A DNA stretch of 64,000 nt from contig CAVOHZ010000003.1 of NCBI GenBank assembly GCA_963695855.1, positions 1-64,000 of the forward strand. Reading direction: 5' to 3'. Source of the DNA: an uncultured Nitrososphaerales archaeon. GTDB taxonomy: Archaea > Thermoproteota > Nitrososphaeria > Nitrososphaerales > Nitrososphaeraceae. The translations under genes and the position numbers were made by a program. Shown here piece by piece: positions 208 to 44,815 of the stretch. The stretch's first letter is position 1; the number at the start of each line of letters is the position of its first letter. The notes under the pieces were generated by a model. It saw only the letters and a list, made by a program, of their open reading frames with translations, was not told where the DNA came from and made no database searches.

Positions 208-1131
208 TTATTCTAATGAAGAATATTTTAGATATTTTTCAAATCTATCTGCATAATTTTTCAATATGGGTTCTTGACTAATTAGGTAAAGTGACTTCAA
301 TTGCTGAATCTGCCCTTTCTGATAATCTCTCATTGTCCAATCTTCCATTAGGTCATAATTAGACCAGAAACCATTATCATATTTTACCAGATTTTCTTTT
401 AAATAATTTATTCCTTTGTCAAATATTGTTTTTGCTACAGGATCCTTGGTTTTTTCATAATAAGACCATATAGATAATAGAGATTGAGTATGACCATTTA
501 ATACATATGTCTTTTGAAAGCCAGGTTTTGCCAAAATATGAAGAAATAAAGAGTTATTTCCGATACCTTCGTAGGTTACAAAACCCCCTTCATCATAATC
601 CACCAAAAAAGATCTAATTATTTTTTTTGCTACATCCAGATATTTCTCACTTCCTGTTAATTCGTAAGCTAAAGTTAATACCTGCAACCCTTTTGCTTGT
701 GCTAATGCAGACGAATATGGCGGAGATATCCAACCATAAAACATCCATGGGTATTCGTATTCCCATAAAGAATATTCTCCCTTGTTATTAGCATTTTTTA
801 CAAGCCAGTCAGCAGAGCTGATAAATTTATCTTTTGACTGTTCTTTATCCTTGTCTTTTACATAGTCTGCATAATACATTAGCCCTCCACTTGCAACAGT
901 TAAAGGATTGTATACTTTCCTTTGAACGCCGTGATAATCAACTATTAAAACACCATTTTCATCAGCTTCTATCTTTGTGCGTGCACTTCCCAAGTCTGCC
1001 TCTACATTTGGAACTAAATTCAAGTTTACGAACGGGATACTCTGATTATTATCATAATAATAAAGTGTAATGTATATCAATGTTGAAATCATAAAGATCA
1101 TTAGATGACTTAGCGTCAGCCTCAGATACAT
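208..1131 (-). CDS. Membrane-anchored D-glucuronyl C5-epimerase family protein
   Basis: N-terminal TM segment; motifs YNPLTVA, SALAQAKGLQVL, YVLNGH..SL..IW.Y and YD.GFWSNYDL resemble the C5-epimerase C-terminal (alpha/alpha) domain. Confidence 0.8.
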   Translation of the reverse strand: MYLRLTLSHLMIFMISTLIYITLYYYDNNQSIPFVNLNLVPNVEADLGSARTKIEADENGVLIVDYHGVQRKVYNPLTVASGGLMYYADYVKDKDKEQSKDKFISSADWLVKNANNKGEYSLWEYEYPWMFYGWISPPYSSALAQAKGLQVLTLAYELTGSEKYLDVAKKIIRSFLVDYDEGGFVTYEGIGNNSLFLHILAKPGFQKTYVLNGHTQSLLSIWSYYEKTKDPVAKTIFDKGINYLKENLVKYDNGFWSNYDLMEDWTMRDYQKGQIQQLKSLYLISQEPILKNYADRFEKYLKYSSLE

Positions 1132-1167
1132 CTATAGAATTTAAATCTCCATTTTCTTATTATTATT

Positions 1168-1913
1168 TCACTCTATCGTGAACATCAATCGAAAATCACA
1201 ATTCGTATCGACTATATCGTATAAATCTCCTGCTTCGCCAGAACTTTCAGAGCAATAGTCATGTTTCAAGTCTTTTCCAAAATTATCTTTAACAGTAAAT
1301 TCCTTTGCTATTATACCGATAGCATCATTTTTGTCAAAAGCTGTTAATGGTTCAACAGCAAATCGTGATTTGTCCTTATCTTCTGATAATGGTACCCCCC
1401 ATTATCTAAGATAGTGGAAATATCTGGCAAGTAATTTTTTAGTTGGTCTGTTTTACTATCGTATTCTATCCCTAAGGTTATTATCCTCAAATTTTCGTTG
1501 CTCGGGATTTGTAAATTTATAAATTTCTCTCCTTTTGGAAATACGACTTTCTGACCACTTTCAACTCCTATACTTGAATTTGGTAGTAAGGATATTCTTT
1601 TTCCATTTACATAAGCATCAATCCTCCACTCGCCATCAAATAACAGATCATGATCACTGTTTATCTTAATTGAATCAAACGATATTTTCAAATCACGCAT
1701 AATTTCTGAATTGTTATTTGTGATATTGATAGACTCGTCGTCATTTATCTTTTCATCCTGGGCGAGACTTTGATCGATCTGGTTTAATAAAAGCAAGCTA
1801 GTACCTAATAAAAAACCAAAGGTTATCATGGTATTTACAGAATGCCTTTTAGGATAAAACATCTCCTTTTTATTTAAATTAGAGATGTTATTGACTCTAT
1901 CGACTTCTTTCAT
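1168..1913 (-). pseudogene. Secreted hypothetical protein, frameshifted at a G6 run
   Basis: ORF 1344-1913 shifts at the run at 1395-1400; another frame continues cleanly (VPLSEDKDKSRFAVEP...NCDFRLMFTIE*) to the stop at 1168. Confidence 0.65.
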
Positions 1914-2441: not shown

Positions 2442-2526
2442 AAATTATTCATTGCATTATCATACTAATAATCAATTAATTTTTTCTATACCAAATTGTT
2501 TGATATTTTATATGATAGATATGGTA

Positions 2527-3240
2527 TCAAAGGAATCTAATAGAATCAATTAACTTTGTTACCTCTCCAAGGTTTTTAAAGTATCCTTCTTCGTTAGCGA
2601 TATATTCAATTTCATACACCTTATCCCCCTTTAAAACCCAGATATTCATTCCGTATCTTTTATCCTTAAATGATTCACTTGAATTACGGTGGTCTTCTAT
2701 CGAATATTCAAACTTCCAAGCTGGAATATTTTCTCTTCCAATATATTCCACGTTATTACTAACATAATTGAATTTAAGGTCAGAAAACAGAATCTCTAAA
2801 TCCTGGATTTTTATCTTTGCAAATTCTTTAAGTGAAATATTGTTCAAGTTCAAGTCATATGATAAGATATTAAGAATTGGAGGAAAATAGGAATAAAAAT
2901 AATTATAATAGTTTTTACTATTTTTATTCTTATAATCTTTATAAAGATCAGAATCGTGTATTTCGAGAGAGATTATTTTATCACTAGGAGGAAATATGTT
3001 AATAAATTCTGATATTTGCCAGTTAGATGGGTATTTAAAAACAAAATCAATTCTTGGATTTTCATAATTATAATAGAGCGTTCCATTTGTGTATTTGAAA
3101 GTCTTAATGTCAGGTTTCGTGTCTAATTGTCCTAGTGATGTGATTTGATTTAGGTAAAAACATTTTACTAGTATCAGTATGATAGCTATGATTAACAATC
3201 TGTAACATATACTACTACTACTACCATTCAATTTATCCAT
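2527..3240 (-). CDS. PsbP-related secreted protein
   Basis: Signal anchor; YENP..DFVFKYPSNW and K.GDKVYEIEY.A...IDSIRF patterns typical of PsbP-like proteins. Confidence 0.7.
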   Translation of the reverse strand: MDKLNGSSSSICYRLLIIAIILILVKCFYLNQITSLGQLDTKPDIKTFKYTNGTLYYNYENPRIDFVFKYPSNWQISEFINIFPPSDKIISLEIHDSDLYKDYKNKNSKNYYNYFYSYFPPILNILSYDLNLNNISLKEFAKIKIQDLEILFSDLKFNYVSNNVEYIGRENIPAWKFEYSIEDHRNSSESFKDKRYGMNIWVLKGDKVYEIEYIANEEGYFKNLGEVTKLIDSIRFL

Positions 3241-6199: not shown

Positions 6200-7016
6200 C
6201 TATTCTTTGATCTTCCTTTTTTTATTTGATTTAAAGTTTGTATAGAATCCTTCTGGTTTGTCTCTGTTAAACGGTTTGTCTCTGTTAAACGGTTTGTCTC
6301 TGTTAAACGGTTTGTCTCTGTTAAACGGTTTGTCTCTGTTAAACGGTTTGTCTCTGTTAAACGGTTTGTCTCTGTTAAACGGTTTGTCTCTGTTAAACGG
6401 TTTGTCTCTGTTAAACGGTTTGTCTCTGTTAAACGGTTTGTCTCTGTTAAACGGTTTGTCTCTGTTAAACGGTTTGTCTCTGTTAAACGGTTCTGTCTCT
6501 GTTAAACGGTTTGTCTCTGTTAAACGGTTTGTCTCTGTTAAACGGTTTGTCTCTGTTAAACGGTTTGTCTCTGTTAAACGGTTTGTCTCTGTTAAACGGT
6601 TTGTCTCTGTTAAACGGTTTGTCTCTGTTAAACGGTTTGTCTCTGTTAAACGGTTTGTCTCTGTTAAACGGTTTGTCTCTGTTAAACGGTTTGTCTCTGT
6701 TAAACGGTTTGTCTCTGTTAAACGGTTTGTCTCTGTTAAACGGTTTGTCTCTGTTAAACGGTTTGTCCGAATCAGATTGGAGGTTTTCTGGAACCAACTG
6801 TTCAGTAATTTCACCCGTTTGTGGTGTTTCAGAAATGTCCTCAACTGTCCAATAATGTCCTAAACTGCAGAAATAAAAATAATTTTCACTCGAAGTTTTG
6901 AAACAAGATATAAAATCAAGAGACAGATCATCTTTGCAAAATTTGCAATTACCAATATATTCCCCATTACTTTGCTGCTGCTGCTGCTGCTGCTGACATA
7001 TTATTACTGATATCAA
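6200..7016 (-). CDS. Zn-ribbon protein with ~28 PFNRDK repeats, split by a 1-nt insertion
   Basis: polyQ, CKFC...CSLGH, then a (PFNRDK)n tract. The extra C at 6493 splits it into ORFs 6483-7016 and 6200-6844; basic C-terminal tail KSNKKRKIKE. Confidence 0.55.
6255..6767. repeat. 18-bp tandem repeat GGTTTGTCTCTGTTAAAC, ~28 copies
   Basis: Directly visible; perfect except for one inserted C at 6493. Confidence 0.98.
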
Positions 7017-7778
7017 GCAGTAATAAATAATTTGTTAAAAATGAATTTCCTGGTAAATTTAATAGGCTATTTTGAAATTCAATTTCTTTGGAATTATCAG
7101 GGTAGATTTTAAAATGTGATAATAATTCTTCAAAATTCAAAAATTCAAAAAGTACGATAATGAGTGAAATAATATATATTTACAAAATTTCAATTCGATT
7201 TTTATGGTTTATAAATTATTTTACAATATCCTATTTGGATAATTTGTCATAACTTGAAATTTTATTTAACCAATTTTCTTGATATACCTGTTTTCATGGT
7301 AATTGTTCTATTTTTCCCGACTTTATTATTGAATGTCTATTAATTATATACATATATTTAAATATTGTAAGAGGGCAATTATCAAAATATTTTTTATTCA
7401 TTATGTTGATTTTTTTAAATGAATAATTACCATAACTACTATTCCATAAATCTTAATATAATATATCAAAGAAAAAATAAATTTTGCATGGCAATTATAT
7501 TGGCATTATTTCTTTATCTTATTGGCATAGTTTCTTCTATCCATTGAATAGAAAATCGAAAATAATATGACAAGGAGACATAGCTCCATATATGCATGAT
7601 CAGATTTTCGATTATTGTTGAAATGTAATCAAGAATTTTTTAATCTCAATACTAACTGTTAGTAAATCCTGTAATAATACAATAGAAATTTTTTAATATA
7701 AAATATCTATAAAGAAAATTACAGAAGATTATGATAAAAAATTAAAATCTAGTAAATTTTTCTATATAATGATCTATA

Positions 7779-8975
7779 TTGAAAATAGTTTTTAAAAGTA
7801 TCACTTTTATGCTTTTTCCTCTAGCACTATTATTTCTCCTCATTCCAGTTATCAATTTAGATGGTAGCTACTTTGCATTCGCCAAGAAATCTCATAATAG
7901 CGATGGAGACGATGACAATAGCAGTGATAGCACTAACCAAGATAGCAATAATGATGATGATAAAGGCGATGATGATAAAAAATCAAAAGATGATGATAAA
8001 AAGAAAGATAAGAAAAGCAAGAAAGATAAAAAGAAGAAAAAATCAAAGGACCATGACAATAATAAAACAGAAAACATTCCTGATAGCGTGAATAAAGTAG
8101 ATAATAACATGGACGATAGATTTGGAATAAAGTACATCTATCCTACGACCACAAATGGTCAAGAATGGTTTCTAAACATGGCAAATCCACTTGAGGACTC
8201 TCGTTTTAGTCCATTCAATTTAAACACAGCAAAAACAGACCCGAACCTTGAAATTTCTCAAAATAAAGATGGATCTTGGAAACTAAAATCGAAAAATTCT
8301 GAAGCCAAGGTAAGAATGGACGTCTTTACTTCCGAAGGATATCATCCTGAAAGGATAGAAACTTTTGACCATGAAAAACTAGCAGAAAAAGGCTATATGG
8401 AATCTACAACAGACTGGAAAAATGTTGAAATGACTGGATACATAAAATTGAATCATTATACTATTCCCCCTGATGAAGGAAAATTTACTTGGTATAATAG
8501 AGGGGGTCACCATAGTCTATCAAATCCTTGTGAGGGAGTTGGATACAAAGGAAGTATTTATTTTTCTGGAGATACAAAATTTTCAAAAGAACAGTGGCAT
8601 GTTAGCTATGTTTTCAGCGACATCAAGAAGGCAGCTGGACCTATCAAAGATAAGTGGATAGGTTACAAGTTTATAACATATAACATTGAAAACCCAGAAG
8701 ACCCATCTCGCACGATCGTAAAAATGGAGAGTTGGTTGGATCCCAGAAATGATGGGAATTGGATAAAAGTAGACGAACATACTGATAGCGGGAATTGGGG
8801 TCAAGCAGGTAAAAAATGTGACGGAGACACGGATCAAATTATCACATGGGGAGGTCCAATTGCAACCTTTAGATGGGATTTTGCAGATGATGTGGATTTC
8901 AAAAATTTGAGCGTTAGAGAGATTCAGCCACCTGTAAGTAGCCTGAACATATTGGAAAAAAATAATATAAACTGA
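7779..8975 (+). CDS. Secreted protein with D/K-rich linker and Trp-rich, probably beta-sandwich carbohydrate-binding or lyase-like domain
   Basis: Signal peptide (AFA), D/K low-complexity tract, then DRFGIKYIYPT, WKNVEMTGY and WGGPIATFRWD motifs. Confidence 0.6.
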   Translation: MKIVFKSITFMLFPLALLFLLIPVINLDGSYFAFAKKSHNSDGDDDNSSDSTNQDSNNDDDKGDDDKKSKDDDKKKDKKSKKDKKKKKSKDHDNNKTENIPDSVNKVDNNMDDRFGIKYIYPTTTNGQEWFLNMANPLEDSRFSPFNLNTAKTDPNLEISQNKDGSWKLKSKNSEAKVRMDVFTSEGYHPERIETFDHEKLAEKGYMESTTDWKNVEMTGYIKLNHYTIPPDEGKFTWYNRGGHHSLSNPCEGVGYKGSIYFSGDTKFSKEQWHVSYVFSDIKKAAGPIKDKWIGYKFITYNIENPEDPSRTIVKMESWLDPRNDGNWIKVDEHTDSGNWGQAGKKCDGDTDQIITWGGPIATFRWDFADDVDFKNLSVREIQPPVSSLNILEKNNIN

Positions 8976-9171
8976 TAACTGCATGATTGAGATTAATTAA
9001 ATTATTCAAAAATTAAACTAGTAATGTAATCTATTAAATACCAATCCAAAAGATACAAATAGATAATAGAATGAGGTGAGACATTTAAATAGATATTTAC
9101 AAGACCACTTTTCAACGATTGTTATTATTTGAAACCATACATATTTAAAAAAGAGAATGTAAGCTGATAAT

Positions 9172-9238
9172 GGGAATGAAGTGATAAGCTGCTCCAGTCT
9201 GAGTTACAAGCTATGAAGTACTCGCGACGAACTGACCC
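9172..9238 (+). ncRNA. Candidate C/D box guide sRNA
   Basis: GGG...CCC terminal stem, C-like ATGAAGT/GTGATAA, CTGA (D'), ATGAAGT (C'), CTGA (D), 11-12 nt GC-rich guides; TATA-like TTTAAAA ~25 bp upstream. Confidence 0.55.
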
Positions 9239-9349
9239 AAAAAATAAATAAATCTGATATCCTAATTGTTTGTTTAAAACATAGATCAATAGACATAGCA
9301 AAGAAAATAAAATAAAAGTAAAATAAAGTAAAGAAAAGTAAAGAAAACT

Positions 9350-10525
9350 TTATGTCTTTAGTTTTAACAGAGGCAAAGATAATAAAATTATCACAATTCC
9401 TGCCAGAAACCAAGCAATGTTATATCCGTATTCAGCTATGACATAGGAAAACATTACTGGAATCCAAAATGAGGTCGATAGCGAAATGCCATTAACAAAA
9501 CATACAGATAGAGTCTGATATTGCACTTTTACATCTTGATCCTGTTTTGCTTTTGCGTAGATTACAACAAATCCCATTGACAGAAAAATACCAGAGATCA
9601 GAATTGAAAAAATTACGATATAAATTGAATCAATATACAAAAGCATTATACTACAGGCAGAAATGACCGCTGAAAAGAACAAAAGTTTCTTTGTATCTTT
9701 AATCTTGTCGTACATCCTTCCAAAAAGAGGTGAAAATACTATACCTACTATCAAACTCAGACTTCCGAAAAAGCCTGCCAGAATTGGCTCCACATTTAAT
9801 TTTTCTATCAAATAAATAACCATAAAAGTTAGAGTCAAGCCTGCACCTGTTTGAAACCCCAGTAATGAAATTCCAAGAGTGATTAATGATCTGTTTAATA
9901 GTACTTTTTTTATTTCATTTATTTCAACTTTAACTCTCAATTTAAAGTCGCTAATTAAATAAAGTTCCATGACAGTGGCAATTATTATTCCTACAATTCC
10001 TCCAAATATAATGGACCAGCGCCAACCAAAGATCTCAGTTAATTCTATCCAGCCAAAAATTCCTAACAGTGCACCTATAGCGTGTGCCGAGTTGAGAATA
10101 CCAATCCCCAATCCAGTATTTTTTTCCCCTAAGAACCGAGATATCAAAGTAACACTTGGTCCAAAAAAACATGCCATGCCAGCGCCCACCAAAAATCTAA
10201 GAATTGCTATTTGTGTAATATCTTGTAAAAGACCAGAAATTACGACCATGGATGAAGAGAACAGGATACCAAAAACACCTACTTTACTGGCACCGAATTT
10301 TGCAACCAGTATTCCTGCTGGTACTTGAAAGATACCGACTCCTATGATAAAACTGGTAGTTATTAACCCTAAAGAGGAAATATCAAGACTGAAATCCTGA
10401 GATATAAAATAAAATATTGAAGAAATATTGAACCAATTTATTGTATATAAAATTCTAGCTAAAAATAAAGAAAATGGAATAGGTGAAAAAATCATTTCAA
10501 ATACTTTCATATATTTACAAAACAT
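9350..10525 (-). CDS. MFS transporter
   Basis: About 12 hydrophobic segments; motif A variants (GILVAKFG, GRMYDKIKD), LRFLVGAG and FGWRW. Confidence 0.9.
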   Translation of the reverse strand: MFCKYMKVFEMIFSPIPFSLFLARILYTINWFNISSIFYFISQDFSLDISSLGLITTSFIIGVGIFQVPAGILVAKFGASKVGVFGILFSSSMVVISGLLQDITQIAILRFLVGAGMACFFGPSVTLISRFLGEKNTGLGIGILNSAHAIGALLGIFGWIELTEIFGWRWSIIFGGIVGIIIATVMELYLISDFKLRVKVEINEIKKVLLNRSLITLGISLLGFQTGAGLTLTFMVIYLIEKLNVEPILAGFFGSLSLIVGIVFSPLFGRMYDKIKDTKKLLFFSAVISACSIMLLYIDSIYIVIFSILISGIFLSMGFVVIYAKAKQDQDVKVQYQTLSVCFVNGISLSTSFWIPVMFSYVIAEYGYNIAWFLAGIVIILLSLPLLKLKT

Positions 10526-10836
10526 TTTGATTGATAGTGAGATCTCATAAAATCGTTATCATTGTATTTTATAGCGCATCTTTATAACCATACAAGATGC
10601 TAGCAAGATGATTATTCGAAATTCTGACCAACTGATGGTTTTTCACTTGAAATATAATGTATCGATGTTCAAAAAAAGATAGTACTGACAAGAGTTCACC
10701 AAAAGTTATTAGAATCACTATTTATTTCTATAAATCTTTTAAGATTAATAGATTATAAAAATTTTCCAATATCTAGATTAACTACATTTTAGAGCAAAAA
10801 TTAATACTGTAATAATGATATTATACAGACGAACAA

Positions 10837-11457: not shown

Positions 11458-11617
11458 TAGTCAAAAGTACGGAGTCTTACTTTCTTTTGTTACCGTTTAT
11501 TGTTTATTGATCATTGTTTATTGTATTTTTAATAAGGTGAATGTAATGAACGATTTTTTTAAATTTTATACAGATATATGGTAATAAAAAATATTGGGAA
11601 ATCTTTTGTTATCTCGA

Positions 11618-11836
11618 TTAAGTGACGTCAGGTATATCATCCATTTCTGATGAAACATGTGAAGTCGTTTGATTTGTTATATTTACTGGTGGTATTGGTT
11701 TAATTTCTTCTTGCTCTTGACCTACTGCGGGATTAATAAATCCGCCAGATAACGAGAGGAAAGAGAGAATAAGAACTGTTGACAGCAATATAGTGGAAAA
11801 TAAAATCATATTTACATTCATACTCTTATTATGCAT
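11618..11836 (-). CDS. Small secreted hypothetical protein
   Basis: Signal peptide ending AVG-Q and a short acidic mature part. Confidence 0.5.
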   Translation of the reverse strand: MHNKSMNVNMILFSTILLSTVLILSFLSLSGGFINPAVGQEQEEIKPIPPVNITNQTTSHVSSEMDDIPDVT

Positions 11837-11980
11837 TTAATAGTATTAAAATATTAAAGTATTATTTTAGATTTTAAACCAATTATTAATATAAATATTT
11901 TAATTATTTGCCGTCTACAAAAGTAATAGTTTCGTAGATTTTTTATCTTTTATTTTTTTATCATAAATTATCACAATTTT

Positions 11981-33474: not shown

Positions 33475-35023
33475 TTGGTTGAATGGTTAAAAATTAAAGG
33501 CGATGAAAAAAATAAATTTCTTTTACTTCTACTTCCTTTAATTTTAAGTGCAGTTATCAACACCTGGAATATAACAGGTTTTCCTAATTTACACGTTGAT
33601 GAAGGATATTACATGTGGAAAACAATGTCTATACTTCAGGGTCAAGGTCTCCTAACATCAGATAGCTATTTGGATAGATATTTTGCTCCTTATTTTGGTC
33701 CGATATTTTTAGCAGGTCTTCTTGGAATGATAGGATATCCTGATATAGTTAATCCAACTCTTGATACTGCTTCGATAGAATCACTTTATTTAATCCCACG
33801 ATTAATTATGAGTATTTTTGCAATCTTAGATACTTTTCTTATCTTTAAAATAGCTGAAAAAAGATATGACATAAAAATAGCATTTATAGCAGCGGTTCTT
33901 TTTGCTGTAATGCCATACGAATGGTTACTTAAGAGAATATTTCTGGAAACAATCCAGTTGCCTCTGCTCTTGACGTCAATATTGCTAGTACTCTTATCTG
34001 AAAAAGATCCCAGATGAAACAAAAAATACCAAAGCTGAAATAAAAAATACTATTTTGATTCTATTTTCAGGTGCTCTATTAGGTTTGGCTATATTTACAA
34101 AAATCCCTATTTTTGCAATGATTCCACTAATAGGATATCTTATTTATGCAAATACCAATAAAAAAAATAAATTTAAGAGTCTTGGATTGTGGCTTATTCC
34201 AGTCATTTTAATTCCTATGTTATGGCCTGCTTTTGCTTTTTCTATAGGCGAATTTGATAAGTGGATTGAAGATGTCTTACAACAAACTCAACGAGAGAGT
34301 AAACCACTTGTTAATACACTTACAACATACCTTGAAAATGATCCCGCAATGTTTTTGTTGGGATTAGCAGGAATAGTGAATGCAGCTATTAGACGAGATT
34401 ATTTTATATTGTTATTTAGTCTTCCTTTCATCTTATTTTTATACTGGATTGGTTATGTATCAACTTTTCATATAATACCTCTTTTTCCGGTATTTGCAAT
34501 TGGTGGTGCCAAAATGATAATTGATTTAACAAATTTAGTACCAAATCTAAAATTTTGTAAAACTATCCCATATGTTATTTTATCTGCTATTGCTGTATTT
34601 TGTCTCATCTCTACATTTCTTTTGATCTCGATTGATACAAACTCTGTAGTATTTCAAACACATTTAGCTGTAATCCAGGAGTTACAAAAGACTAATGGAA
34701 CTATTACTCTTGTTGGAAATGCACTTTATTTATGGATGCCACACTATATTTTTGATCTACCTTATAAAACTGCAAGTTTCGATTCGACTAATCCTCTAGA
34801 TAGTGAACATTTCATCCTAATAGCTGATCCCAGATATAAAGCGATCATAAAAGAAAACAGTCCTCGAGGAATTTTTCATAAAGACCTGTTTCTACAATCT
34901 CAAATAATTGAAACAATCAAACCGGATCATCCAATTAAAAAATACAAGCTCAATATTTATCCATATACAAATTTAAGACAATCATCAATAGTAAGAGATG
35001 TAGAAATACGATCTAACTACTAA
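33475..35023 (+). pseudogene. GT-C (ArnT/PMT, GT39-like) polyprenyl-phosphate-sugar glycosyltransferase, single frameshift
   Basis: HVDEGYY after TM1 and SG.LLGLAIFTK.P. Removing one base at ~34000-34011 joins ORFs 33475-34017 and 34055-35023 via DETKNTKAEIKNTI. Confidence 0.8.
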
Positions 35024-35404: not shown

Positions 35405-36556
35405 CTATCCCACAGGCTTGAATACTTGAATAGTATTGGCTGCCCTATCTGAAACATACACATTTCCATCCGAATCTATTGCAAGGTGTTCTGGATCAGT
35501 AAATTGACCATCGCCATTTCCCAAGGATCCAAATTTTGTAATAAAACGACCATCGGCATCAAACTTTTTGACGCTAGGTTTGCCACTGCCAGTATCGCCA
35601 AGTTGTGGGTCATTAACGTAAATGTTATCATATTTGTCTGTAGCCATATGTTCTACTTCTGAAAACTGGTTATCGCCGGTTCCTGTCGAACCGAATTTTA
35701 AGAGAAAATTGCCATTGCTATCAAATTTTTGAACTCTGTCGGTTCCTCTATCATTTACAATTATATTACCTTTTGAATCTATTATAACAGTAACAGGCAG
35801 AATAAATTGGCCATCGCCGCTACCTAGAGTTCCCCAGCTCTTGACAAATTTACCGCTAGGATCAAATTTTTGGATACGGTTATTCTTTGAATCAACAACA
35901 TAGAGAAATTTTATATCTTTGTCCACAGCAATTTGTCTTGGATTATTGAATTCACCTGGTTTTGTACCAAAAGAACCAAATTTAAATAGAAAGTTACCAT
36001 CTTTGTCAAATTTTTGAATACGATGATTTCCTCTATCAGCAATCCAGACGTCACCTTTGGCATCAACATCAACACTATATGGTACAGTAAATTCACCATC
36101 TCCTTTTCCTTTTGATCCCCATTTCTTTATAAAGTTGCCATCTTTATCAAATATCTGAATACGATTACCATCTCTATCTACAGTATAGAGATATTTTTCT
36201 GTAGGATCAAAGTCAAGGTCATGAACTCGTTGGAATTGGCCATCTCCAGTTCCGTTTGATCCCCATTTTTTAACAAATTGATATACTGTAGCATTTGGAT
36301 CAAATGCGCTTGCGCTCTGAACGAGCATCATAGACAAAACCAACATACTTGTTATAATAAGAAGAGAACTAGAAAGATAGTAAATGTAATGATTAATGTT
36401 ACAATTAATATTACAATTAAGATTTGATTTCATATCACTTACTTTCATAGTTACCATTTTTGGGACAATAGAAAAATAGATTTTTACAATCCATTTTGAA
36501 TATAAATCAAAAAATGAATTTGAATTATAATTAAAATATTTTTGTTTCATAAACAT
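35405..36556 (-). CDS. Secreted NHL-repeat six-bladed beta-propeller
   Basis: Signal peptide ending ASA and six NHL repeats; true start probably downstream of the first Met. Confidence 0.9.
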   Translation of the reverse strand: MFMKQKYFNYNSNSFFDLYSKWIVKIYFSIVPKMVTMKVSDMKSNLNCNINCNINHYIYYLSSSLLIITSMLVLSMMLVQSASAFDPNATVYQFVKKWGSNGTGDGQFQRVHDLDFDPTEKYLYTVDRDGNRIQIFDKDGNFIKKWGSKGKGDGEFTVPYSVDVDAKGDVWIADRGNHRIQKFDKDGNFLFKFGSFGTKPGEFNNPRQIAVDKDIKFLYVVDSKNNRIQKFDPSGKFVKSWGTLGSGDGQFILPVTVIIDSKGNIIVNDRGTDRVQKFDSNGNFLLKFGSTGTGDNQFSEVEHMATDKYDNIYVNDPQLGDTGSGKPSVKKFDADGRFITKFGSLGNGDGQFTDPEHLAIDSDGNVYVSDRAANTIQVFKPVG

Positions 36557-36609: not shown

Positions 36610-37285
36610 AGGCCGGGTCATAATTATTCCATTTTCATAAAGAATAAAGCTAGTTTATTGGTGTATGATGTTTTGGTGAAAAACTATCATTCAATCCAAC
36701 AAACTAGCACAGAAAAGATCTACATCTATTCTAATTAGTATTTTGTATTTGATTGGTTTGATTAGTTGGCCACATAATAATAGAGGAGGAGGAGGTGGGC
36801 GTGGTAGACCATATTTCTATCCTTCTACTGTTATACTACGATGTTTTATAGTACGTATCTGGTTTAGATTGGATTTGAACAGAGCATTATATGAGTACCT
36901 TGCAATGGACCTATCATATAACAGAAAGGTAATAATGAAGGGATGTGGACTATCCAGAATACCAGGCAGAAGAACATTTGATAGACGTCTTGCTACACTA
37001 TCTGATGATATCAAAAACAGGATTACTACAATGCGTGAACTTTTTGTTCGCGATAAAATAATCGATACATCTATCCTCTCAGCAGACAGTGCCCTTATCA
37101 AGGCTAGAGGTTATGTCTGGCACAAATCATCTATGGAAGAGGGAGTAGTACCACATTCTGGTATTGATACAGATGCAATGTGGGGATTCAGCCATACAAA
37201 GGAGGGTTGGATATTTGGATACAAATTACATTTGATATCAAGTACTGGTGGTTTGATAATTGTACCTTTGGCAGTTAGAGCATAA
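36610..37285 (+). mobile_element. Truncated DDE transposase (IS4/IS5-like)
   Basis: GRGRP, RRTFDRRL, ADSALIKA, DTDA.WG and GWIFGYKLHL motifs; C-terminal half is missing. Confidence 0.75.
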
Positions 37286-37752: not shown

Positions 37753-38871
37753 TCACTTAATTATTTTGAATTCATCTAACACTTCGCCGTCATTGGAATA
37801 GTATTTACCTATTAAAGTATTTGCGTTATTTTGAAAATCGATATCCAAAAATCCATAATTTGAATCCTGTTGAAATACTATAAATGGTTCCTGGTTGGTA
37901 AAAGCATCAAAATTAACTCCACCAGTTCCTACAACTATCTGAAACATTCCTTTAGGGGATGTGTATTCAGTTTTGCCGTTATCGTTAATAATTGGTTGTG
38001 CTGGATTTTTTTCATTATAAGATAGAGGATATGTTCTTTGATAATTATGGGCATGGCCACTAAACAGTAAATCAACTCCATATTTTTCAAACAGGGGATG
38101 GTATGTATCTCTCAATTTTTTTATTGGTTCACAAGAGTCATGAAGTCCACAAAGTGAAGAATATTGCTGTCTATGAGTCATAACGATAATCCACTTTATA
38201 TCCGGATTTTTTGATGCTTGTAACAGATCTTTATCAACATATTCATATTGTTCTGTTTCTTCAGCATCTGAGAAACGATCTTCTTCACCAGCATTATATG
38301 TAGATTCAGAAGACATCATTAGAAAATGTATGTTCTTGTAATTAAACGAGTAATATTCCCCGGGTAATCCAAAGTTTTCCATATATTGTTCGAAAATGGT
38401 AGGCGACATGTAATCATGATTACCAATTACTGACTTCATTTTGTCAGATATTGGTTTAACTATGTCTAACCAACAATTCATATCAGTGCCATAGGATGTA
38501 TCTCCAAGACTGAAGACTATCTCTGGATTGTGATCTTGAATAGAATCTACTGTCTTTTTAGTATCTTTAGTGCAACCCCAATCACCAACTATTGCAAAAT
38601 TGAAATTAGACGAATTTTTTTCATCCTCAAACTGTTCATTTTTTTCCTTAAAAGCCATATTTTGACTTTTAGAATCTGCACTTTCAGAGTTTTCACTTTT
38701 ATGCGATGAAGTGCTTTTACCGCTATAGTCATTAGGGTCATAATATTCTTCTAATGGCAATTCAAAAATATTATCATCTTTGGAAAATGCATTTTTTAAT
38801 GAAATATGAGTAGAAAGTAATAACGATAAACACAAAGAAATGATTAATATTTTATTATATTTATTTAACAC
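37753..38871 (-). CDS. Secreted metallophosphoesterase (purple acid phosphatase-like)
   Basis: GDWG, GDTSY, GNHD, MTH and GHAH.YQR motifs. Confidence 0.9.
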   Translation of the reverse strand: MLNKYNKILIISLCLSLLLSTHISLKNAFSKDDNIFELPLEEYYDPNDYSGKSTSSHKSENSESADSKSQNMAFKEKNEQFEDEKNSSNFNFAIVGDWGCTKDTKKTVDSIQDHNPEIVFSLGDTSYGTDMNCWLDIVKPISDKMKSVIGNHDYMSPTIFEQYMENFGLPGEYYSFNYKNIHFLMMSSESTYNAGEEDRFSDAEETEQYEYVDKDLLQASKNPDIKWIIVMTHRQQYSSLCGLHDSCEPIKKLRDTYHPLFEKYGVDLLFSGHAHNYQRTYPLSYNEKNPAQPIINDNGKTEYTSPKGMFQIVVGTGGVNFDAFTNQEPFIVFQQDSNYGFLDIDFQNNANTLIGKYYSNDGEVLDEFKIIK

Positions 38872-39742: not shown

Positions 39743-40462
39743 GGTGCTGTTAACTTAAGGAAAGAGATATAGCTGCGAACGTTCTATTCTAACAATATAT
39801 GTTGTTAAGATTTGTCAGAAATAGAACATCTACGGGTATAGTAATGTATTCTTTGTATTTGTACTTTCTTGGTCACAGTCTACTAAATACATCCATAGCA
39901 TTGCAACCTTTTAAGGATCAAAAAAGAAGTTATGTTGCTGCATGGGATTGGATTCAACAGTTTGGTTCATGTCAGATCTATAACAAGTAAAGAAGAATTT
40001 CTGCATTCATTATAGATGAGAATATAATTCAGATTGGTAGTCAACATTTTTGGTTGTGGATCTGTATAGAACCTGTTCATAAATCATACTTGGAATCTAC
40101 ATTTCTAGAGAAACATGTTTGTAGCAGAGAATTTTATTAGATCGCATGTATCAAGGTATGGAAAACATACAGTTTACACAGATGGTGGCGGTACGTGGTA
40201 TCCACAAGCATGTAACTTTTTAAATCCAAAACATCGATTGCATTCACCTTAAGAGAAGAGCTTTATAGAAAGAGTGATGCAGTATTTCAAGGATAGGACA
40301 TAATGTTTTGATGATTACTATCCTTGTAATAATAATAAACAAAATTGTGATCTACAGCATGTATACAATTGGATCAAATTATTTGTTCATCTGTATAATG
40401 CAAAAATTAGAAACAATATTGTACCAAAATTGGAGGCTAAATAGTCTTAAGTCAACACAGCC
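39743..40462 (+). mobile_element. IS6-family element, 720 bp, inactivated transposase
   Basis: Terminal inverted repeats GGTGCTGTTAACTTAAG / CTTAAGTCAACACAGCC; homologous to the 29447 copy; internal stops and frameshifts. Confidence 0.88.
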
Positions 40463-40643: not shown

Positions 40644-41015
40644 TCATTTCTTTATGATAGCAAAAAAGAAGAACAAAGTAACTAAAGTTGTTATTGATGC
40701 AGCAAAAAACTCTAATAGAGAATAAGATTGTAATATAGGATAAAAATCTTCAAGAGCTTCAAAGTATAAATAAAAAGTAAAAGATACAAATGCAAATACC
40801 GCATAAAGGATTTTCTTGACACCTTTTTTCCTATATGCGTAAATAGAGAGAGCTGAAATAATCGTAGATAGTATTGCACTTGAAAAATATACGATTCCTT
40901 CCAGTTGATCTATATTTACCAATTGAAAAATCATAAAAAAAGATCTACTTTTTATCTTCGTCTGATAGCAATAGAAATATTTCTGCAAGGCTGTTAGCCC
41001 ATCTATCCCAAACAC
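40644..41015 (-). CDS. Small 3-TM membrane protein coupled to a wHTH regulator
   Basis: Paralog of 27169-27507; real start is likely the internal Met (MIFQLV) just after the regulator stop. Confidence 0.72.
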   Translation of the reverse strand: MFGIDGLTALQKYFYCYQTKIKSRSFFMIFQLVNIDQLEGIVYFSSAILSTIISALSIYAYRKKGVKKILYAVFAFVSFTFYLYFEALEDFYPILQSYSLLEFFAASITTLVTLFFFFAIIKK

Positions 41016-41484
41016 CTTTGTAATAATTTTTTAATAATCTGATTATTTCAGGAATGTTAGAGTACTCACTATTATTGACCGAATACCTGATAAATTTTCC
41101 ATCTTTTTTTTCAGTTATCACACCATAAGAAATCAATCTCTCAATGTGCCAATTGGTCGCTGAATAAGAAATATTTAAATGAGATGCTATTTCACCTTTC
41201 GTAGGATTTTTCTTTTCGATTATATACAAAAGAAGATTTCGTAAAGAATTATGACTTAATATTTGCAACAACTCCTTCTCATGTTCTTGAAATATCCCAT
41301 ATGGATAATAAAATTTGTAGAAACCTTTCCTCAAAGAAATAATTTTTCCATCTTTTTCTAGCTTATTCAATTGATATTGAATTGTTCCCATAGAGAACCC
41401 TAATTCCTTTTTTATGCCTCGAAAATGACATCCAGGATGATTTTTTACAAAATCTAAGACTCTTGAACTATTATCTTGCTCCAA
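40945..41484 (-). CDS. Double winged-helix transcriptional regulator
   Basis: HPGCHFRGIKKELGFSMGTIQYQL and NWHIERL; paralog of 27500-28084. Confidence 0.88.
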   Translation of the reverse strand: MEQDNSSRVLDFVKNHPGCHFRGIKKELGFSMGTIQYQLNKLEKDGKIISLRKGFYKFYYPYGIFQEHEKELLQILSHNSLRNLLLYIIEKKNPTKGEIASHLNISYSATNWHIERLISYGVITEKKDGKFIRYSVNNSEYSNIPEIIRLLKNYYKGVWDRWANSLAEIFLLLSDEDKK

Positions 41485-41779: not shown

Positions 41780-43867
41780 TTGAGAATAAAAAGAGATAAT
41801 ATGAAATCCCATGTTCTGATATTAGTTGCTTCTGTAATATTCTTAGCTGTTATAATAAATTCCAACCAACTTGCTAATGCTCAGAATTCATCTTTCCATA
41901 ATACCTCTAAAAGCGTCGAGCAACGATCAAGTTCTTCTTTAGAATCCATTACTACTACTACCACTGCTGGTTACAATTTTGAACCATTTCTGTTATTGAA
42001 CGGCACACAGTACCAGGATATTCCTCATAATAATACACTTTCTCTTCAAAATTTCACTGTTGCATCATGGATAAAAAATAATCAATCTACTTTACCAGGA
42101 CCTGCTATTTTAGTGAATAAAGGAGGATTTAACAGTGACGAAGAGGGTAAAAATATGAATTATGGGTTTTGGTTCTCAAGCAAGGGAATAATTCAAGGAG
42201 GATTTGAAACCAAATCTGGCGAGTATTTTGCAGTAAATTCTACAGAGAAATATAATGATGGAAAATGGCATTTTGTACTGTTAGCATATGATGGCAATTT
42301 ATTGAAACTAGATATAGATGGAAAAGAGGTGTCTACAAAAATAACTGGGGGAGCATTACCAGATAATACCGGTACCCAACCTTTAAGGATAGGAGCAAAT
42401 TCATTGGAAGAAGATAAATTTTTCAATGGTGCTTTGGATGAAATAAGGATATGGAATAAGAGTCTAAATGCATCTGAAATATCAAATGCATCCAATAATA
42501 ATATTTCTACTTCAATTAATCCTATTGTTTATTTAGATTTTAAAGAAAATGGTGATAATAACATTGTTCCGAATTTAGTTAATAATAGCAAGTTACAAAC
42601 AAAGAAAAGCGTCAATACGCTTCTCGAAAAAGAACAAAAAAAGTCTAATACAAATGAAAAAATAGATGTGCAAGCTTGGAACGAGCTTGTCCAACAAAAA
42701 TCAGGAAATACTCAGCAGAATAAAGCTGCATCTCTGTCCACTGACAAGACGAATTTCAATATAGCAGTTGCTGGTGATTTTGGTTGTTCTACAAGAGCTC
42801 AGGAAAATATAAAAAATATAGAACTTCAAGAACCTGAATTGTTTTTAGCTGTGGGAGATTTAGCATATAAACCAACTGCTGATTGCTGGTTTACTATGAC
42901 GAAAAATATAGATTCTAAAACTAAAATAGCAATTGGAAATCATGAAGATAAAGAAGAATTAGACGGATCTGATCTATTGATACAACAATATCTAGATCAC
43001 TATCAACTTCCCAATTCGTACTATTCTTTTAATCTCAAAAATCTTCACGTTCTTGTTTTAAATACCCAATTAGAATTTTCTGTGGATACTGTAGCGTCCT
43101 ATGCTACGTCTACACCAAATACAGATAATAATGATAAATCAGATTCTAAAGTTAAAGATCAATCTAATCTAGGGATTCCTGATACAAAATTAGAAGATTT
43201 ATTGAAAAAATACTCTCTCAAAATAAAAGTACCAAAACTTGACAAATTATTAGATAAAACGGCGCTAGTTCCAGATCTAGAAGTAGATCCCAAACAATAC
43301 GAGTTTGCTGCTGATGATTTGAAGAAAGCAAGCACTGATCAATCGATAGATTGGATATTTGTAATCTTTCATAAACCGATATACTCCTCACCCTCAAAAC
43401 AACTTGAAGAATACATAATTAGAGAAAAATATCAACCACTATTTGATCAGTATAATGTTGATCTAGTACTTCAAGGACACAATCATATCTATGATAGAAC
43501 TTTACCGATAAAATTTAACTCGCTTAATATAACCAATCCAATTGTAGATAAAGGAAATGACAATAGCCATTTCACTAATCCAGATGGCACCATATATACA
43601 GTGGTAGGAACAGGTGGAAAAGGACCAGTTCGTATCTCTGGTACTCCATTTTACACAGTTAGTCAAGATAGACCTATAGCAGGATTTTTGAATATAAATA
43701 TAGATGGAAAAGATTTGGAAGCGACATTTTATGATATTGGCTTAAAATGTAAAGAAATTAAATCAAAGAAAACTGGCCAACCTGTATTAGACATTGAATC
43801 ATGCCAACCAAGAGATGAATCCACACAACTAAAAATTGTAGATACATACAAAATATCAAAAAGATAG
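41780..43867 (+). CDS. Secreted LamG-like + metallophosphoesterase fusion
   Basis: LamG-like domain nearly identical to that in 20820-22598; GDFG, GDLAY, GNHE, IFH and GHNH motifs; ~70-aa insertion in the catalytic domain. Confidence 0.9.
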   Translation: MRIKRDNMKSHVLILVASVIFLAVIINSNQLANAQNSSFHNTSKSVEQRSSSSLESITTTTTAGYNFEPFLLLNGTQYQDIPHNNTLSLQNFTVASWIKNNQSTLPGPAILVNKGGFNSDEEGKNMNYGFWFSSKGIIQGGFETKSGEYFAVNSTEKYNDGKWHFVLLAYDGNLLKLDIDGKEVSTKITGGALPDNTGTQPLRIGANSLEEDKFFNGALDEIRIWNKSLNASEISNASNNNISTSINPIVYLDFKENGDNNIVPNLVNNSKLQTKKSVNTLLEKEQKKSNTNEKIDVQAWNELVQQKSGNTQQNKAASLSTDKTNFNIAVAGDFGCSTRAQENIKNIELQEPELFLAVGDLAYKPTADCWFTMTKNIDSKTKIAIGNHEDKEELDGSDLLIQQYLDHYQLPNSYYSFNLKNLHVLVLNTQLEFSVDTVASYATSTPNTDNNDKSDSKVKDQSNLGIPDTKLEDLLKKYSLKIKVPKLDKLLDKTALVPDLEVDPKQYEFAADDLKKASTDQSIDWIFVIFHKPIYSSPSKQLEEYIIREKYQPLFDQYNVDLVLQGHNHIYDRTLPIKFNSLNITNPIVDKGNDNSHFTNPDGTIYTVVGTGGKGPVRISGTPFYTVSQDRPIAGFLNINIDGKDLEATFYDIGLKCKEIKSKKTGQPVLDIESCQPRDESTQLKIVDTYKISKR

Positions 43868-43870
43868 TAA

Positions 43871-44815
43871 ATGAGTGTCATTCATGTATTGAAATCTAAT
43901 TATATTATGACTTGTTTTATTCTTTTATGTTCTTTATTTTTCTCAACTGATTATTTTGTTAAGATTTCTTATTCATCTACAAATTCGACCGATTTTAATT
44001 TTGCATTGGTTGGTGATTGGGGTTGCACTCCAAATACAATAAAAACGGTAGACTCTATCCAAAAACACAATCCAGAGATAGTCTTTAGTCTGGGTGATAC
44101 ATCTTACCAACTTGACAGTGACTGTTGGTTAGACATAGTTAAACCAATATCTGACAAAATGAAGTCAGTAATTGGTAATCATGATACAATGACACCATAT
44201 ATGTTGAACCAATTAATGAATTATTTTGGATTATCCAAACAATATTATTCATTCGATTACGATAGTATTCATTTTCTGATCATGTCCTCTGAATTTTTAT
44301 ATCTTTCTGGTTCTGGACAGTATAGTTTTGTTGAAAATGATTTATCTAAAGCCTCCAAAAACCCAGATATAAAATGGATTATTGTGTTGATACATAGACA
44401 ACAATATTCTTCACTTTGTGGACTTCATGACTCTTGTGACCCGATAAAAAAATTGAGGGATACCTACCATCCCCTGTTTGAAAAATATGGGGTTGACTTA
44501 CTGTTTAGCGGCCATGCGCATAATTACCAAAGAACCTATCCGCTATCATATAATAGCATAAATTCATCACAACCAATTATCAACGATAACGGCAAAACTG
44601 AATACATATCCCCTAAAGGAATGTTTCAGATAGTTGTAGGGACTGGAGGGATCGATTTTGATCCTTTTACCAATCAAGAACCTTATGTTGCATACCAGCA
44701 AGATTCTAGCTATGGATTTTTAAACGTGGATGTAGCCGATCATGCAAATATGTTTATAGGTAGATATTATTCCAATAATGGCACTATATTAGATGAATTT
44801 AAAATCACTAAATAA
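43871..44815 (+). CDS. Secreted metallophosphoesterase (purple acid phosphatase-like)
   Basis: GDWG, GDTSY, GNHD, LIH and GHAH motifs; close paralog of 37753-38871; starts 3 bp after the previous gene. Confidence 0.9.
   Translation: MSVIHVLKSNYIMTCFILLCSLFFSTDYFVKISYSSTNSTDFNFALVGDWGCTPNTIKTVDSIQKHNPEIVFSLGDTSYQLDSDCWLDIVKPISDKMKSVIGNHDTMTPYMLNQLMNYFGLSKQYYSFDYDSIHFLIMSSEFLYLSGSGQYSFVENDLSKASKNPDIKWIIVLIHRQQYSSLCGLHDSCDPIKKLRDTYHPLFEKYGVDLLFSGHAHNYQRTYPLSYNSINSSQPIINDNGKTEYISPKGMFQIVVGTGGIDFDPFTNQEPYVAYQQDSSYGFLNVDVADHANMFIGRYYSNNGTILDEFKITK

Follow-up and report, generated by a model that had tools for sequence, protein, structure and literature searches.

The 64,000-nucleotide stretch analyzed here (the window: positions 1–64,000 of contig CAVOHZ010000003.1, assembly GCA_963695855.1, from an uncultured archaeon of the Nitrososphaeraceae) carries in its left part, at 208–44,815, a block of genes for exported proteins, among them phosphoesterases, NHL propellers and propellers of the GSDH family. 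We consider it probable, while stopping well short of certainty, that this block is a vertically inherited cluster built by duplication and made of small separable modules, and not a single pathway. Old local duplication, inversion, gene conversion and insertion sequence (IS) activity would have built it. One module, at about 7.8–26.3 kb, would hold GSDH-like propellers, each beside a member of a cysteine-containing family (the Cys family), together with NHL, repeats-in-toxin (RTX), major facilitator superfamily (MFS) and concanavalin A-like (ConA-like) proteins; it would oxidize or bind sugars outside the membrane, with the Cys protein as a putative non-enzymatic partner or anchor of the GSDH propeller. 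The other, at about 27–44.8 kb, would hold six phosphoesterases resembling purple acid phosphatases (PAPs), of at least four old subtypes, four of them with canonical Fe(III)–M(II) ligands and two with a second metal site apparently rebuilt with Asp, plus two pairs of a winged helix-turn-helix (wHTH) regulator and a small membrane protein, each divergent from a phosphoesterase gene; it would act extracellularly as a phosphoester-hydrolyzing set, which the wHTH pairs might control locally.

Families were called with a Pfam scan of the listed open reading frames (ORFs), with NCBIfam as a second profile set, and genes were counted as export-type by a simple measure, either a best 12-residue hydropathy of at least 2.15 near the N-terminus or several transmembrane (TM) segments. 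An N-terminal hydrophobic segment or several membrane spans were present in 26 of the 28 non-transposase genes at 208–44815, the two exceptions both being wHTH proteins; in the right flank (45–64 kb), none of 13 ORFs reached a hydropathy of 2.1. Of 22 soluble proteins, 12 had an [A/G/S]-Q pair behind the hydrophobic core, as cleaved signal peptides would, and judged from sequence nearly all products of the block are likely to be extracytoplasmic. The preliminary description, which held that nearly all genes here encode signal-peptide or membrane proteins drawn repeatedly from a few families, was right on both counts: we found six phosphoesterases, four NHL proteins, three GSDH-like proteins, two laminin G (LamG) fusions and two Cys-family paralogues, and the C5-epimerase-like gene, the RTX protein, the MFS transporter and the two wHTH/TM pairs that it listed were recovered by Pfam and TM segments.

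The GSDH-like and Cys-family genes are the following:

11981–13270 (minus strand), degenerate GSDH-like propeller (Pfam GSDH 21 bits, below the cut-off of 25)
15974–16888 (minus), Cys-family protein 1, with an N-terminal helix, an acidic linker and two seven-stranded beta-sandwiches in an AlphaFold2 (AF2) model
17221–19386 (minus), GSDH-like six-bladed propeller of the soluble glucose dehydrogenase (sGDH) type with a C-terminal tail of about 250 amino acids (aa) (Pfam GSDH E 2.7e-34)
23516–24889 (plus), GSDH-like propeller (Pfam GSDH E 1.1e-32)
25415–26293 (plus), Cys-family protein 2, 35% identical to 15974–16888

The GSDH-like proteins at 17221 and 23516 scored 119.4 and 114.1 bits, respectively, against the cut-off of 25 and are 73% identical to each other; Pfam found nothing in the C-terminal tail of the former. 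The best solved relatives of the GSDH-like proteins were 2ISM, 3A9G and sGDH. In the alignment with sGDH 1C9U, His144 corresponds to His and Arg228-Asn229 to R-N in 17221, with H and K-N in 23516, and Gln231 and His227 are absent at the aligned positions in the GSDH-like copies; we take these sGDH residues to be catalytic or to bind pyrroloquinoline quinone (PQQ) or Ca. The third copy, at 11981, is 28–30% identical to the other two and has lost the catalytic His and the R-N motif, "KDEG" replacing "H-x-G-G" both here and in its orthologue in the related locus L001; with 67% identity between the two, against 79–93% for the neighbours, this is the fastest-evolving orthologue pair.

The Cys family has no Pfam or NCBIfam match. 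Its conserved Cys residues align between the two window proteins, and in the AF2 model of 15974–16888, in which the linker is disordered (predicted local distance difference test score, pLDDT, 76; predicted TM-score, pTM, 0.71), C126/C150 and C267/C281 lie on neighbouring strands, one pair per sandwich; the model suggests one disulfide per domain and an internal duplication. Foldseek returned adhesin, pilin and Ig-like folds at low TM-scores (0.15–0.24). A profile search among 1.84 billion representatives gave 182 matches at E 1e-3 or better, many of them short, and the Atlas gave unnamed archaeal clusters only; on these matches, the family is small and lineage-restricted.

The order "GSDH-like then Cys" occurs twice in the window, inverted, and for this reason we anchored the scan of related genomes on the Cys family. 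The sample consisted of 79 loci (872 kb; numbered L001 onward) from 47 assemblies, all of Nitrososphaeraceae type, whose ORFs of at least 70 aa were searched at E 1e-5 or better with family profiles built from one to six window sequences. The matches comprised 84 Cys, 27 GSDH-like, 20 phosphoesterase, 13 NHL, 8 RTX and 6 wHTH genes, 6 TM partners, 5 ConA-like, 3 LamG, 1 C5-epimerase-like and 1 MFS. GSDH-like genes were concentrated near the Cys genes, with 23 within 2.5 kb (314.7 kb of sequence) versus 4 at 2.5–10 kb (490.9 kb), a rate ratio of 9.0 (P = 1.1e-6); no significant distance gradient was seen for phosphoesterases (11 vs. 9, ratio 1.9), NHL (5 vs. 8, ratio 1.0) or RTX genes (3 vs. 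5, ratio 0.9). The 19 full-length Cys–GSDH pairs had gaps of 133–1912 bases, 10 on the same strand and 9 on opposite strands, and the relationship is one of linkage without a fixed operon. Apart from the window, 13 assemblies had full-length pairs. When adjacency to GSDH was mapped onto a quick tree of 77 Cys proteins, it changed state 13 times, compared with a shuffled mean of 17.8, and is thus spread over many paralogue clades. The divergences of the Cys and GSDH proteins were correlated (Mantel r 0.53, a value that none of 2000 permutations reached), a pattern that would fit co-inheritance and co-duplication, with shared species history contributing.

The block as a whole behaved differently from this pair. 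The window order was repeated in L001 only, a 14.7-kb contig reading LamG-NHL, NHL, GSDH with tail, Cys, NHL, GSDH, RTX, MFS, ConA-like and repeat ORF, collinear with window positions 6606–22038 at 82–83% nucleotide identity and with orthologous proteins 67–93% identical. Further island families were absent from 37 of the 79 Cys-centered loci, whereas 22 had one, 12 had two and 8 had at least three; among the 39 loci of at least 10 kb, the corresponding numbers were 15, 13, 5 and 6. Within two genes of the anchor, the 244 gene slots held 24 GSDH-like, 7 phosphoesterase, 6 NHL and 4 RTX genes, and 192 held no island family. We scanned 144 of these 192 (those of at least 125 aa) and found CorA, histidine kinases, aminotransferases, tRNA synthetases and IS240 transposases, along with a few CHRD, multicopper-oxidase and PQQ_2 proteins; the Cys neighbours elsewhere are mostly unrelated housekeeping genes. 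Phosphoesterase–NHL adjacency occurred in 4 of 25 phosphoesterase neighbour slots. The gene-neighbourhood comparison that the preliminary description had named as its check supports the Cys–GSDH linkage, finds the segment at 6.6–22 kb in one related contig and does not show the block at full length.

The phosphoesterases and the wHTH pairs of the second module are as follows:

27169–28084 (minus), double winged-helix regulator (27500–28084) overlapping a gene with three to four TM segments (27169–27507), called from HTH_24 and TM segments
28386–29396 (plus), PAP-like phosphoesterase with canonical ligands (Pfam Metallophos E 7.8e-15)
30820–31839 (plus), PAP-like phosphoesterase, Asp variant of "S type" (67% identity to 32317; alignment)
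32317–33321 (plus), PAP-like phosphoesterase, Asp variant of "H type" (alignment)
37753–38871 (minus), PAP-like phosphoesterase with canonical ligands (Metallophos E 6.9e-17, plus Metallophos_C)
40644–41484 (minus), second double-wHTH regulator (40945–41484) with a 3-TM partner (40644–41015), called from Pfam and identity to the first pair
41780–43867 (plus), LamG fused to a PAP-like phosphoesterase with canonical ligands and an insert of about 70 aa (Laminin_G_3 E 3.6e-29, Metallophos E 1.3e-10)
43871–44815 (plus), PAP-like phosphoesterase with canonical ligands (Metallophos E 5.2e-13), 73% identical to 37753–38871

The six enzymes lie within 17 kb. The seven metal ligands, in five motifs (GDxG, GDxxY, GNH[DE], xxH and GHxH), are complete in 28386 (SDFG, GDLSY, GNHD, LHK and GHNH), 37753, 41780 and 43871, and incomplete in 30820 and 32317, where the Asn of motif III and the first His of motif V are both replaced by Asp. 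In 32317, motif III reads GDHE, the His of motif IV is kept and motif V reads GDNH; 30820, assigned to the family solely via its 67% identity to 32317, has GDHE, no His in motif IV and SDNH. Among the 120 closest database relatives of 32317, motif III had Asp in all 120 and the first position of motif V had Asp in 119 and Glu in 1, while motif IV had its His in 52 and Ser, Pro or Thr instead in the other 68; at the Fe site, none of the 120 had lost the Asp, the Tyr or the second His. The coupled change in motifs III and V was also found in five locus genes (in L002, L003, L005, L065 and L069). Following the usual PAP assignment, we take the three altered positions to be ligands of the divalent-metal site and the Fe(III) ligands to be untouched. 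With the Asp variant kept by every one of the 120 relatives, the change does not represent decay, and the two phosphoesterases appear to belong to a large subfamily with the second metal site rebuilt by Asp. In all six enzymes, motif I is immediately followed by a Cys (D-[WF]-G-C), with another about 35 residues further along (C-W), and the two probably form a disulfide typical of the exported subfamily. In a quick tree of 17 phosphoesterases, 30820 was sister to the L005 gene and 41780 to the gene at 6509–7813 of L002, both with 96% support (Shimodaira–Hasegawa-like approximate likelihood ratio test, SH-aLRT), and the array therefore consists of old paralogues and does not reflect recent amplification.

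The first wHTH protein matched HTH_24 (E 7.4e-17) and HTH_HVO_0163_N (E 1.1e-14), and its gene pair is divergent from the phosphoesterase gene at 28386; the second pair, with regulators 49% and TM partners 42% identical to those of the first, is divergent from the LamG-phosphoesterase gene at 41780. Between the wHTH gene at 27500–28084 and the phosphoesterase gene at 28386, two exact 14-nt direct repeats (28159–28189, 17 nt apart) stand beside an imperfect inverted repeat and are a candidate operator. The 14-nt word was not found upstream of other island genes, a relaxed pattern (up to two mismatches) gave 8 matches versus 4.7 expected (13 of 100 shuffles reached 8), and inspection of 25 upstream regions revealed no shared motif, the only exact repeat being the local one. 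In the relatives, the 3-TM family also occurs alone, directly upstream of Cys genes (L002 9626–9931, L069 215–466 and L079 821–1114).

The NHL proteins, one of which shares a LamG module with a phosphoesterase, are four:

13457–15307 (minus), NHL six-bladed propeller on a Thr-rich stalk (Pfam NHL E 6.6e-27)
19653–20645 (minus), NHL six-bladed propeller (Pfam NHL E 3.8e-40)
20820–22598 (minus), LamG (ConA-like) module fused to an NHL propeller (Laminin_G_3 E 2.3e-29, plus NHL)
35405–36556 (minus), NHL six-bladed propeller (Pfam NHL E 5.9e-26)

Pfam NHL matched the four proteins at E 3.5e-21 to 3.8e-40, and a simple pattern for the blade motif occurred 6, 5, 2 and 6 times across them, catching only two blades in the NHL-LamG protein at 20820–22598. 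The NHL part of the latter is 54% identical to 35405–36556. The propellers had been described as His-rich, a label that does not survive the residue count, as His makes up only 1.3–2.4% of the NHL proteins; what we see is a His recurring in the blade motif, in three to four of six blades, in three of the four. For 19653–20645, the closest solved structures were TRIM-NHL domains (E 1e-54); the amidating lyase PAL scored E 3e-16. The stalk of 13457–15307 is a tandem repeat of 51 nt × 15.7 copies at 14379–15178 with 99% identity (Tandem Repeats Finder, TRF), its 17-residue units each carrying an N-A-T sequon, with 21 N-x-S/T sequons in the whole protein; the L001 orthologue has 361 aa versus 616 aa in the window, which fits a recent expansion of the stalk particular to the window's genome. 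The two LamG modules share 498 nt at 97% identity in inverted orientation (21898–22395 vs. 41959–42456) and are closer to each other (97%) than to the L001 orthologue (91–94%), arguing for a recent conversion within the genome. The shared module would direct the NHL propeller and the phosphoesterase to the same, probably glycan, ligand.

Besides the LamG conversion, paralogues in the block are 28% to 73% identical, and two further inverted repeats mark local duplication: one of 494 nt with 89% identity between the 5' parts of two GSDH-like genes (23646–24139 vs. 18772–19265) and one of 515 nt with 81% identity between two phosphoesterase genes, of which 43871 is one. Transposase remnants accompany them:

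22816–23398 (minus), degraded IS240/IS6-type transposase remnant (tblastn to ORFs of L014, L021 and L025 and to window 29501), flanked by the two inverted GSDH blocks
29501–30158 (plus), frameshifted IS240/IS6-type transposase remnant (DDE_Tnp_IS240 E 1.2e-7; tblastn continuation at 30018–30158)
36743–37285 (plus), weak DDE-transposase-like fragment (DDE_Tnp_1_3 E 0.0057, below cut-off)
39799–40417 (plus), degraded IS240/IS6-type transposase remnant (tblastn 60–75% to ORFs of L014, L021 and L025, in two frames), with direct repeats matching 29512–29704

The IS240-type remnants, at 22.8, 29.5 and 39.8 kb, lie between gene blocks. The G+C content is about 30% across the whole window (0.28–0.35 in the region and 0.26–0.33 in the flank, with no compositional break between them), and the coding fraction of 1–44815 is 0.66. 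We found no tRNA gene, no Rfam match at gathering score and, in the Pfam scan, no integrase or phage gene. Relatives of all six families number hundreds to thousands in the Nitrososphaeraceae, and no closer ones were seen outside. A defence island was also considered and rejected: PADLOC, run on 28 proteins, matched nothing strongly but the two wHTH proteins, through the generic HTH portion of Csa3/CARF models, and gave two further weak matches (E 1.6e-4 and 3.9e-4).

Several observations weigh against the view of separable modules. The old phosphoesterase paralogues have stayed together, which fits selection for co-location; both wHTH/TM pairs are divergent from a phosphoesterase gene, and the shared LamG would link NHL and phosphoesterase functionally. 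In the loci of the relatives, island families fill 17 of 25 phosphoesterase and 15 of 22 NHL neighbour slots, and phosphoesterase, NHL and RTX genes stay at a density of about 0.017 per kb up to a distance of 10 kb from the anchor, which would be very high if genome-wide and makes regional clustering likely; since all loci are anchored on Cys genes, the degree of clustering is uncalibrated against the random genomic background. The shallow profiles and naive ORF calling may also have undercounted relatives, and 40 of the 79 loci span less than 10 kb.

These points feed the strongest competing account, that of the preliminary description, in which the block is one coordinated extracellular system for scavenging organic phosphorus or for the construction and remodelling of a modified surface glycan or extracellular polymeric substances (EPS), co-regulated perhaps via the wHTH/TM pairs. 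Its support comes from the 26 export-type genes out of 28, the concentration of six PAP-like enzymes within 17 kb, each wHTH/TM pair facing a phosphoesterase gene, the presence of wHTH or 3-TM genes near phosphoesterase and NHL genes in L002, L051 and L069, and the LamG module common to NHL and phosphoesterase proteins, which in relatives is fused to the ConA-like domain (14 of 120) and to phosphoesterases (14 of 120). Yet only 8 of 79 loci had at least three further families and 37 had none, the gene order was repeated by a single congeneric contig and just over 6.6–22 kb, and the upstream regions share no common motif, the exact repeat being local. The block also contains no phosphate transporter or pho-type gene, its sole transferase is a frameshifted glycosyltransferase-C (GT-C) candidate with a sub-threshold match, and its genes lie on both strands with gaps of 130–900 bases and a coding density of 0.66. 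What stands of the original proposal is the likely extracytoplasmic location of nearly all products, the family assignments and the company that some families keep elsewhere; the 45-kb block as a conserved unit does not, with no shared upstream motif and with phosphoesterase, NHL and RTX genes showing no gradient around the anchor. Given that island families adjoin one another elsewhere, that old phosphoesterase paralogues persist together and that the wHTH/TM pairs face them, we retain the coordinated system as an unlikely explanation that still has to be reckoned with.

Another idea, which we regard as improbable and as weaker than the coordinated system, is that the block chiefly supplies the cell coat with structural or adhesive components. 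NHL, LamG and RTX proteins, the Ig-like Cys proteins and the glycosylated Thr-rich stalk would make up the coat, with the enzyme-like folds serving as binding modules. The best solved NHL relatives are indeed binding domains and not enzymes, the fold of the Cys protein is similar to those of adhesins and pilins, the catalytic His is gone from one GSDH-like copy, and the roughly 16 repeats of the NHL protein at 13457, with their N-A-T sequons, form a mucin-like stalk; Ca. Nitrosocosmicus, moreover, is described in the accessible part of PMC11559005 as lacking an S-layer and bearing hair-like surface filaments, the window itself being assigned to the family only. Against it stand four phosphoesterases that keep all seven PAP ligands, variants that keep the Fe-site set strictly, two GSDH-like copies that keep the catalytic His and the R-N motif, and the low Foldseek TM-scores (0.15–0.24) behind the adhesin resemblance.

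A horizontally acquired island or an insertion hotspot with accidental content is highly improbable: at least three IS240-type remnants and a further DDE fragment, the low coding density of 0.66, the frameshifted GT-C, the gene-poor stretch at 3.2–7.8 kb and the same transposase family beside Cys genes in L014, L021 and L025 speak for it, but there is no compositional break, flanking tRNA, integrase or phage gene, all six families have many relatives in the Nitrososphaeraceae, 6.6–22 kb is collinear in a related assembly, and the right flank is equally gene-poor and also has a broken gene, so that decay is not special to the block.

Within the duplication-built cluster, a bolder proposal can be made for two of the elements, one that we offer as speculation and hold to be rather improbable: the Cys protein might be a dedicated extracytoplasmic partner of the GSDH-like propellers, as an anchor or as a docking adaptor to blue-copper carriers, and the pair an undescribed entry of sugar electrons into the respiratory chain of ammonia-oxidizing archaea (AOA), while, separately, the Asp-rich PAP-like enzymes might constitute a new metal chemotype among secreted phosphoesterases, one that soil archaea have in abundance. 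In L036, a GSDH-like ORF directly after a Cys-family gene (9102–10508) has an N-terminal plastocyanin/azurin domain (PF00127, 23.5 bits vs. a cut-off of 21.2); in place of the His it has Asp, and since it stops early with a second GSDH piece behind it, it may be broken. Given this Asp and the early end, the ORF gives no more than a hint of a redox role. According to the accessible parts of the sources, PF07995 is expanded in Ca. Nitrosocosmicus to 9–17 copies (PMC6657660), and feeding of sugar electrons into respiration via PF07995 has been proposed for soil AOA (PMC6657660, PMC13006922). The accessible parts of the PF07995 literature do not mention a recurrent Cys-family neighbour of GSDH, no search having been aimed at the Cys family or the pairing.

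The remaining genes of the block are glycan-type, transporter and small proteins:

208–1131 (minus), D-glucuronyl C5-epimerase-like protein with an N-terminal membrane anchor (C5-epim_C E 4.8e-33)
1344–1913, 2103–2441 and 2527–3240 (minus), three small exported or anchored proteins with N-terminal hydrophobic segments
6200–7016 (minus), hexapeptide-repeat ORF or ORFs, an 18-nt tandem array (TRF) read in two frames
7779–8975 (plus), exported protein with a signal or anchor, a K/D-rich disordered linker and a ConA-like jelly roll (AF2, Foldseek)
9350–10525 (minus), MFS transporter (Pfam MFS_1 E 1.7e-39)
10837–11457 (plus), small exported RTX-repeat protein with a calcium-binding beta-roll (HemolysinCabind E 1.2e-27)
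33475–35023 (plus; 33475–34017 and 34055–35023), frameshifted multi-TM GT-C-like gene (PMT_2 sub-threshold, TM segments)

The C5-epim_C match covers profile positions 4–188 of 188 with 114.7 bits (cut-off 23.3), and the hydrophobic segment of the protein lies at residues 3–21. The right border of the block is at about 45 kb and its left side runs to the window edge; with the C5-epimerase-like gene at that edge, the cluster may extend past the window. Pfam gave nothing above cut-off for the three small proteins, the one at 2527–3240 having a weak PsbP_2 match (E 1.5e-4, 22.3 bits vs. a cut-off of 27). Within the gene-poor stretch at 3.2–7.8 kb, the 18-nt repeat runs for 28.4 copies at 6255–6767, its two blocks in different frames and following a Cys-rich N-terminus; the syntenic L001 ORF at 14213–14707 is 63% identical to it over 122 aa. 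The syntenic L001 gene of the MFS transporter is 93% identical. The RTX protein matched HemolysinCabind in three stretches, that is, tandem nonapeptide repeats, and all its NCBIfam scores for named RTX toxin or protease families were far below the cut-offs. The gene that had been listed as a GT-C fares worst: its PMT_2 match is sub-threshold (E 0.003, 18.2 bits vs. a cut-off of 26.1), and a stop and frame change at 34017/34055 split it in two.

The ConA-like domain of 7779–8975 spans residues ~110–398 of an AF2 model with a mean pLDDT of 76, most 10-residue blocks of the domain exceeding 90. Its Foldseek neighbours in the PDB were the galectin-like 1OQ1 (TM-score 0.64 on target), the ulvan lyase 6D2C, a legume lectin and lectin-like jelly-roll subdomains, whereas a PDB sequence search gave nothing below E 0.06. 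Among the 1355 homologues of the domain, fusions to F5/8-C, Ig-like or LamG domains are frequent, and the modeled fold makes it probable that the product binds or acts on glycans. We rejected a more specific identity as a polysaccharide lyase: the Atlas lead to PF14099 was weak (14% of members, 125 shared features), and Foldseek backs a ConA-like jelly roll only, with lectin and lyase neighbours mixed. Many Foldseek matches to neurotoxin receptor-binding domains (TM-scores 0.26–0.34) reflect the generic lectin-like subdomain and do not point to a toxin. The glycan part of the original proposal has three genes behind it, those for the C5-epimerase-like protein, the dead GT-C and the ConA-like protein.

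Beyond 45 kb, we read off the translations phasin-like, nuoB-like, radical-SAM, aRF1-like and CBS-domain genes, of which only the phasin-like ones were profile-scanned. The window holds no amo or carbon-fixation gene, and the label of chemolithoautotroph attached to the organism derives only from the family of its relatives. Three paralogous coiled-coil proteins lie in this flank (45076–45597, 61150–61698 and 63141–63695, minus strand) with a degraded fourth copy at 54397–54777; one has a weak sub-threshold Phasin_2 match, and relatives occur near Cys genes in L020, L022 and L035. A perfect 69-nt inverted repeat (48607–48675 and 49259–49327, 583 nt between the arms) stands between the radical-SAM and aRF1-like genes. 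The end of the window, 51457–64000, is very gene-poor, with few ORFs longer than 100 aa and a G+C content down to 0.26, and contains pseudogene traces such as 53015–53452, which matches an L028 ORF in three pieces. At 56331–57916 (minus), three consecutive ORF pieces are 53–60% identical to a 547-aa ORF of L078 (7873–9513) and constitute one gene broken into frames, with no Pfam match in the pieces.

Soil AOA of the Nitrososphaeraceae are abundant, and the roles of most of their exported proteins and their use of organic carbon and phosphorus are still unsettled. The region shows no new machine; it offers instead three testable handles, namely the conserved pairing of a quinoprotein-type dehydrogenase with a two-domain partner, a very large phosphatase-like subfamily with a putatively rebuilt second metal site, and a LamG "address" module that would tie a propeller and a phosphoesterase to the same ligand. 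The 45-kb "system" is better read as old paralogues kept together, which should temper pathway-style annotation of such clusters. Literature searches returned nothing on metallophosphoesterases in Nitrosocosmicus or on secreted ones in Thaumarchaeota, nothing related on purple acid phosphatases in AOA, nothing relevant on HVO_0163 beyond acetylome work, and, in the accessible parts of the sources on Nitrososphaera NHL repeats, only an unrelated thioredoxin-NHL protein.

Among solved structures, purple acid phosphatases match the window phosphoesterases best (plant PPD1 3ZK4, wheat phytase 6GIT and kidney-bean 1KBP; E 1e-15 to 7e-8). Like the plant enzymes, those of the window are, by their sequences, exported, and four of the six have the D, D..Y, N, H and H.H ligands; unlike them, they are short (a catalytic core of about 280 aa), show no N-terminal FN3-like domain in the Pfam scan, carry a conserved Cys pair next to motifs I and II and, in two copies, have altered second-site ligands. 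PhoD and PhoX, with their Fe-Ca sites, offer a possible analogy to the Asp-variant enzymes. The sGDH-type PQQ dehydrogenases (1C9U, 2ISM and Pyrobaculum 3A9G; PF07995) resemble the GSDH-like proteins in that two window copies score above cut-off, align His144 and R-N/K-N and appear exported, and differ in the changed Gln231 and His227, in one copy without the catalytic His and in another with a 250-aa tail. With TRIM-NHL proteins, the PknD sensor and the PAL lyase, the window propellers have six NHL blades in common (E down to 1e-54 to TRIM-NHL), but the window proteins are predicted to be exported and are fused to LamG or a Thr-rich stalk.

At the level of the cluster, the comparison is with coordinated bacterial loci for extracellular nutrient capture, such as Pho regulon clusters and polysaccharide utilisation loci. 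The window resembles them in having exported hydrolase-type genes beside regulators and a transporter, and departs from them in that its order is not conserved, no phosphate or glycan uptake system stands beside the enzymes and no shared operator was found. The text of Sheridan et al. 2020 (PMC7603488), as far as it was accessible, does not mention phosphoesterase, NHL or PQQ, which its supplementary tables may list, and reports gene duplication as a driver of genome expansion in the Nitrososphaerales. The cluster described here is comparable in that its families stand in two to six copies and bear signs of local duplication, inversion and conversion.

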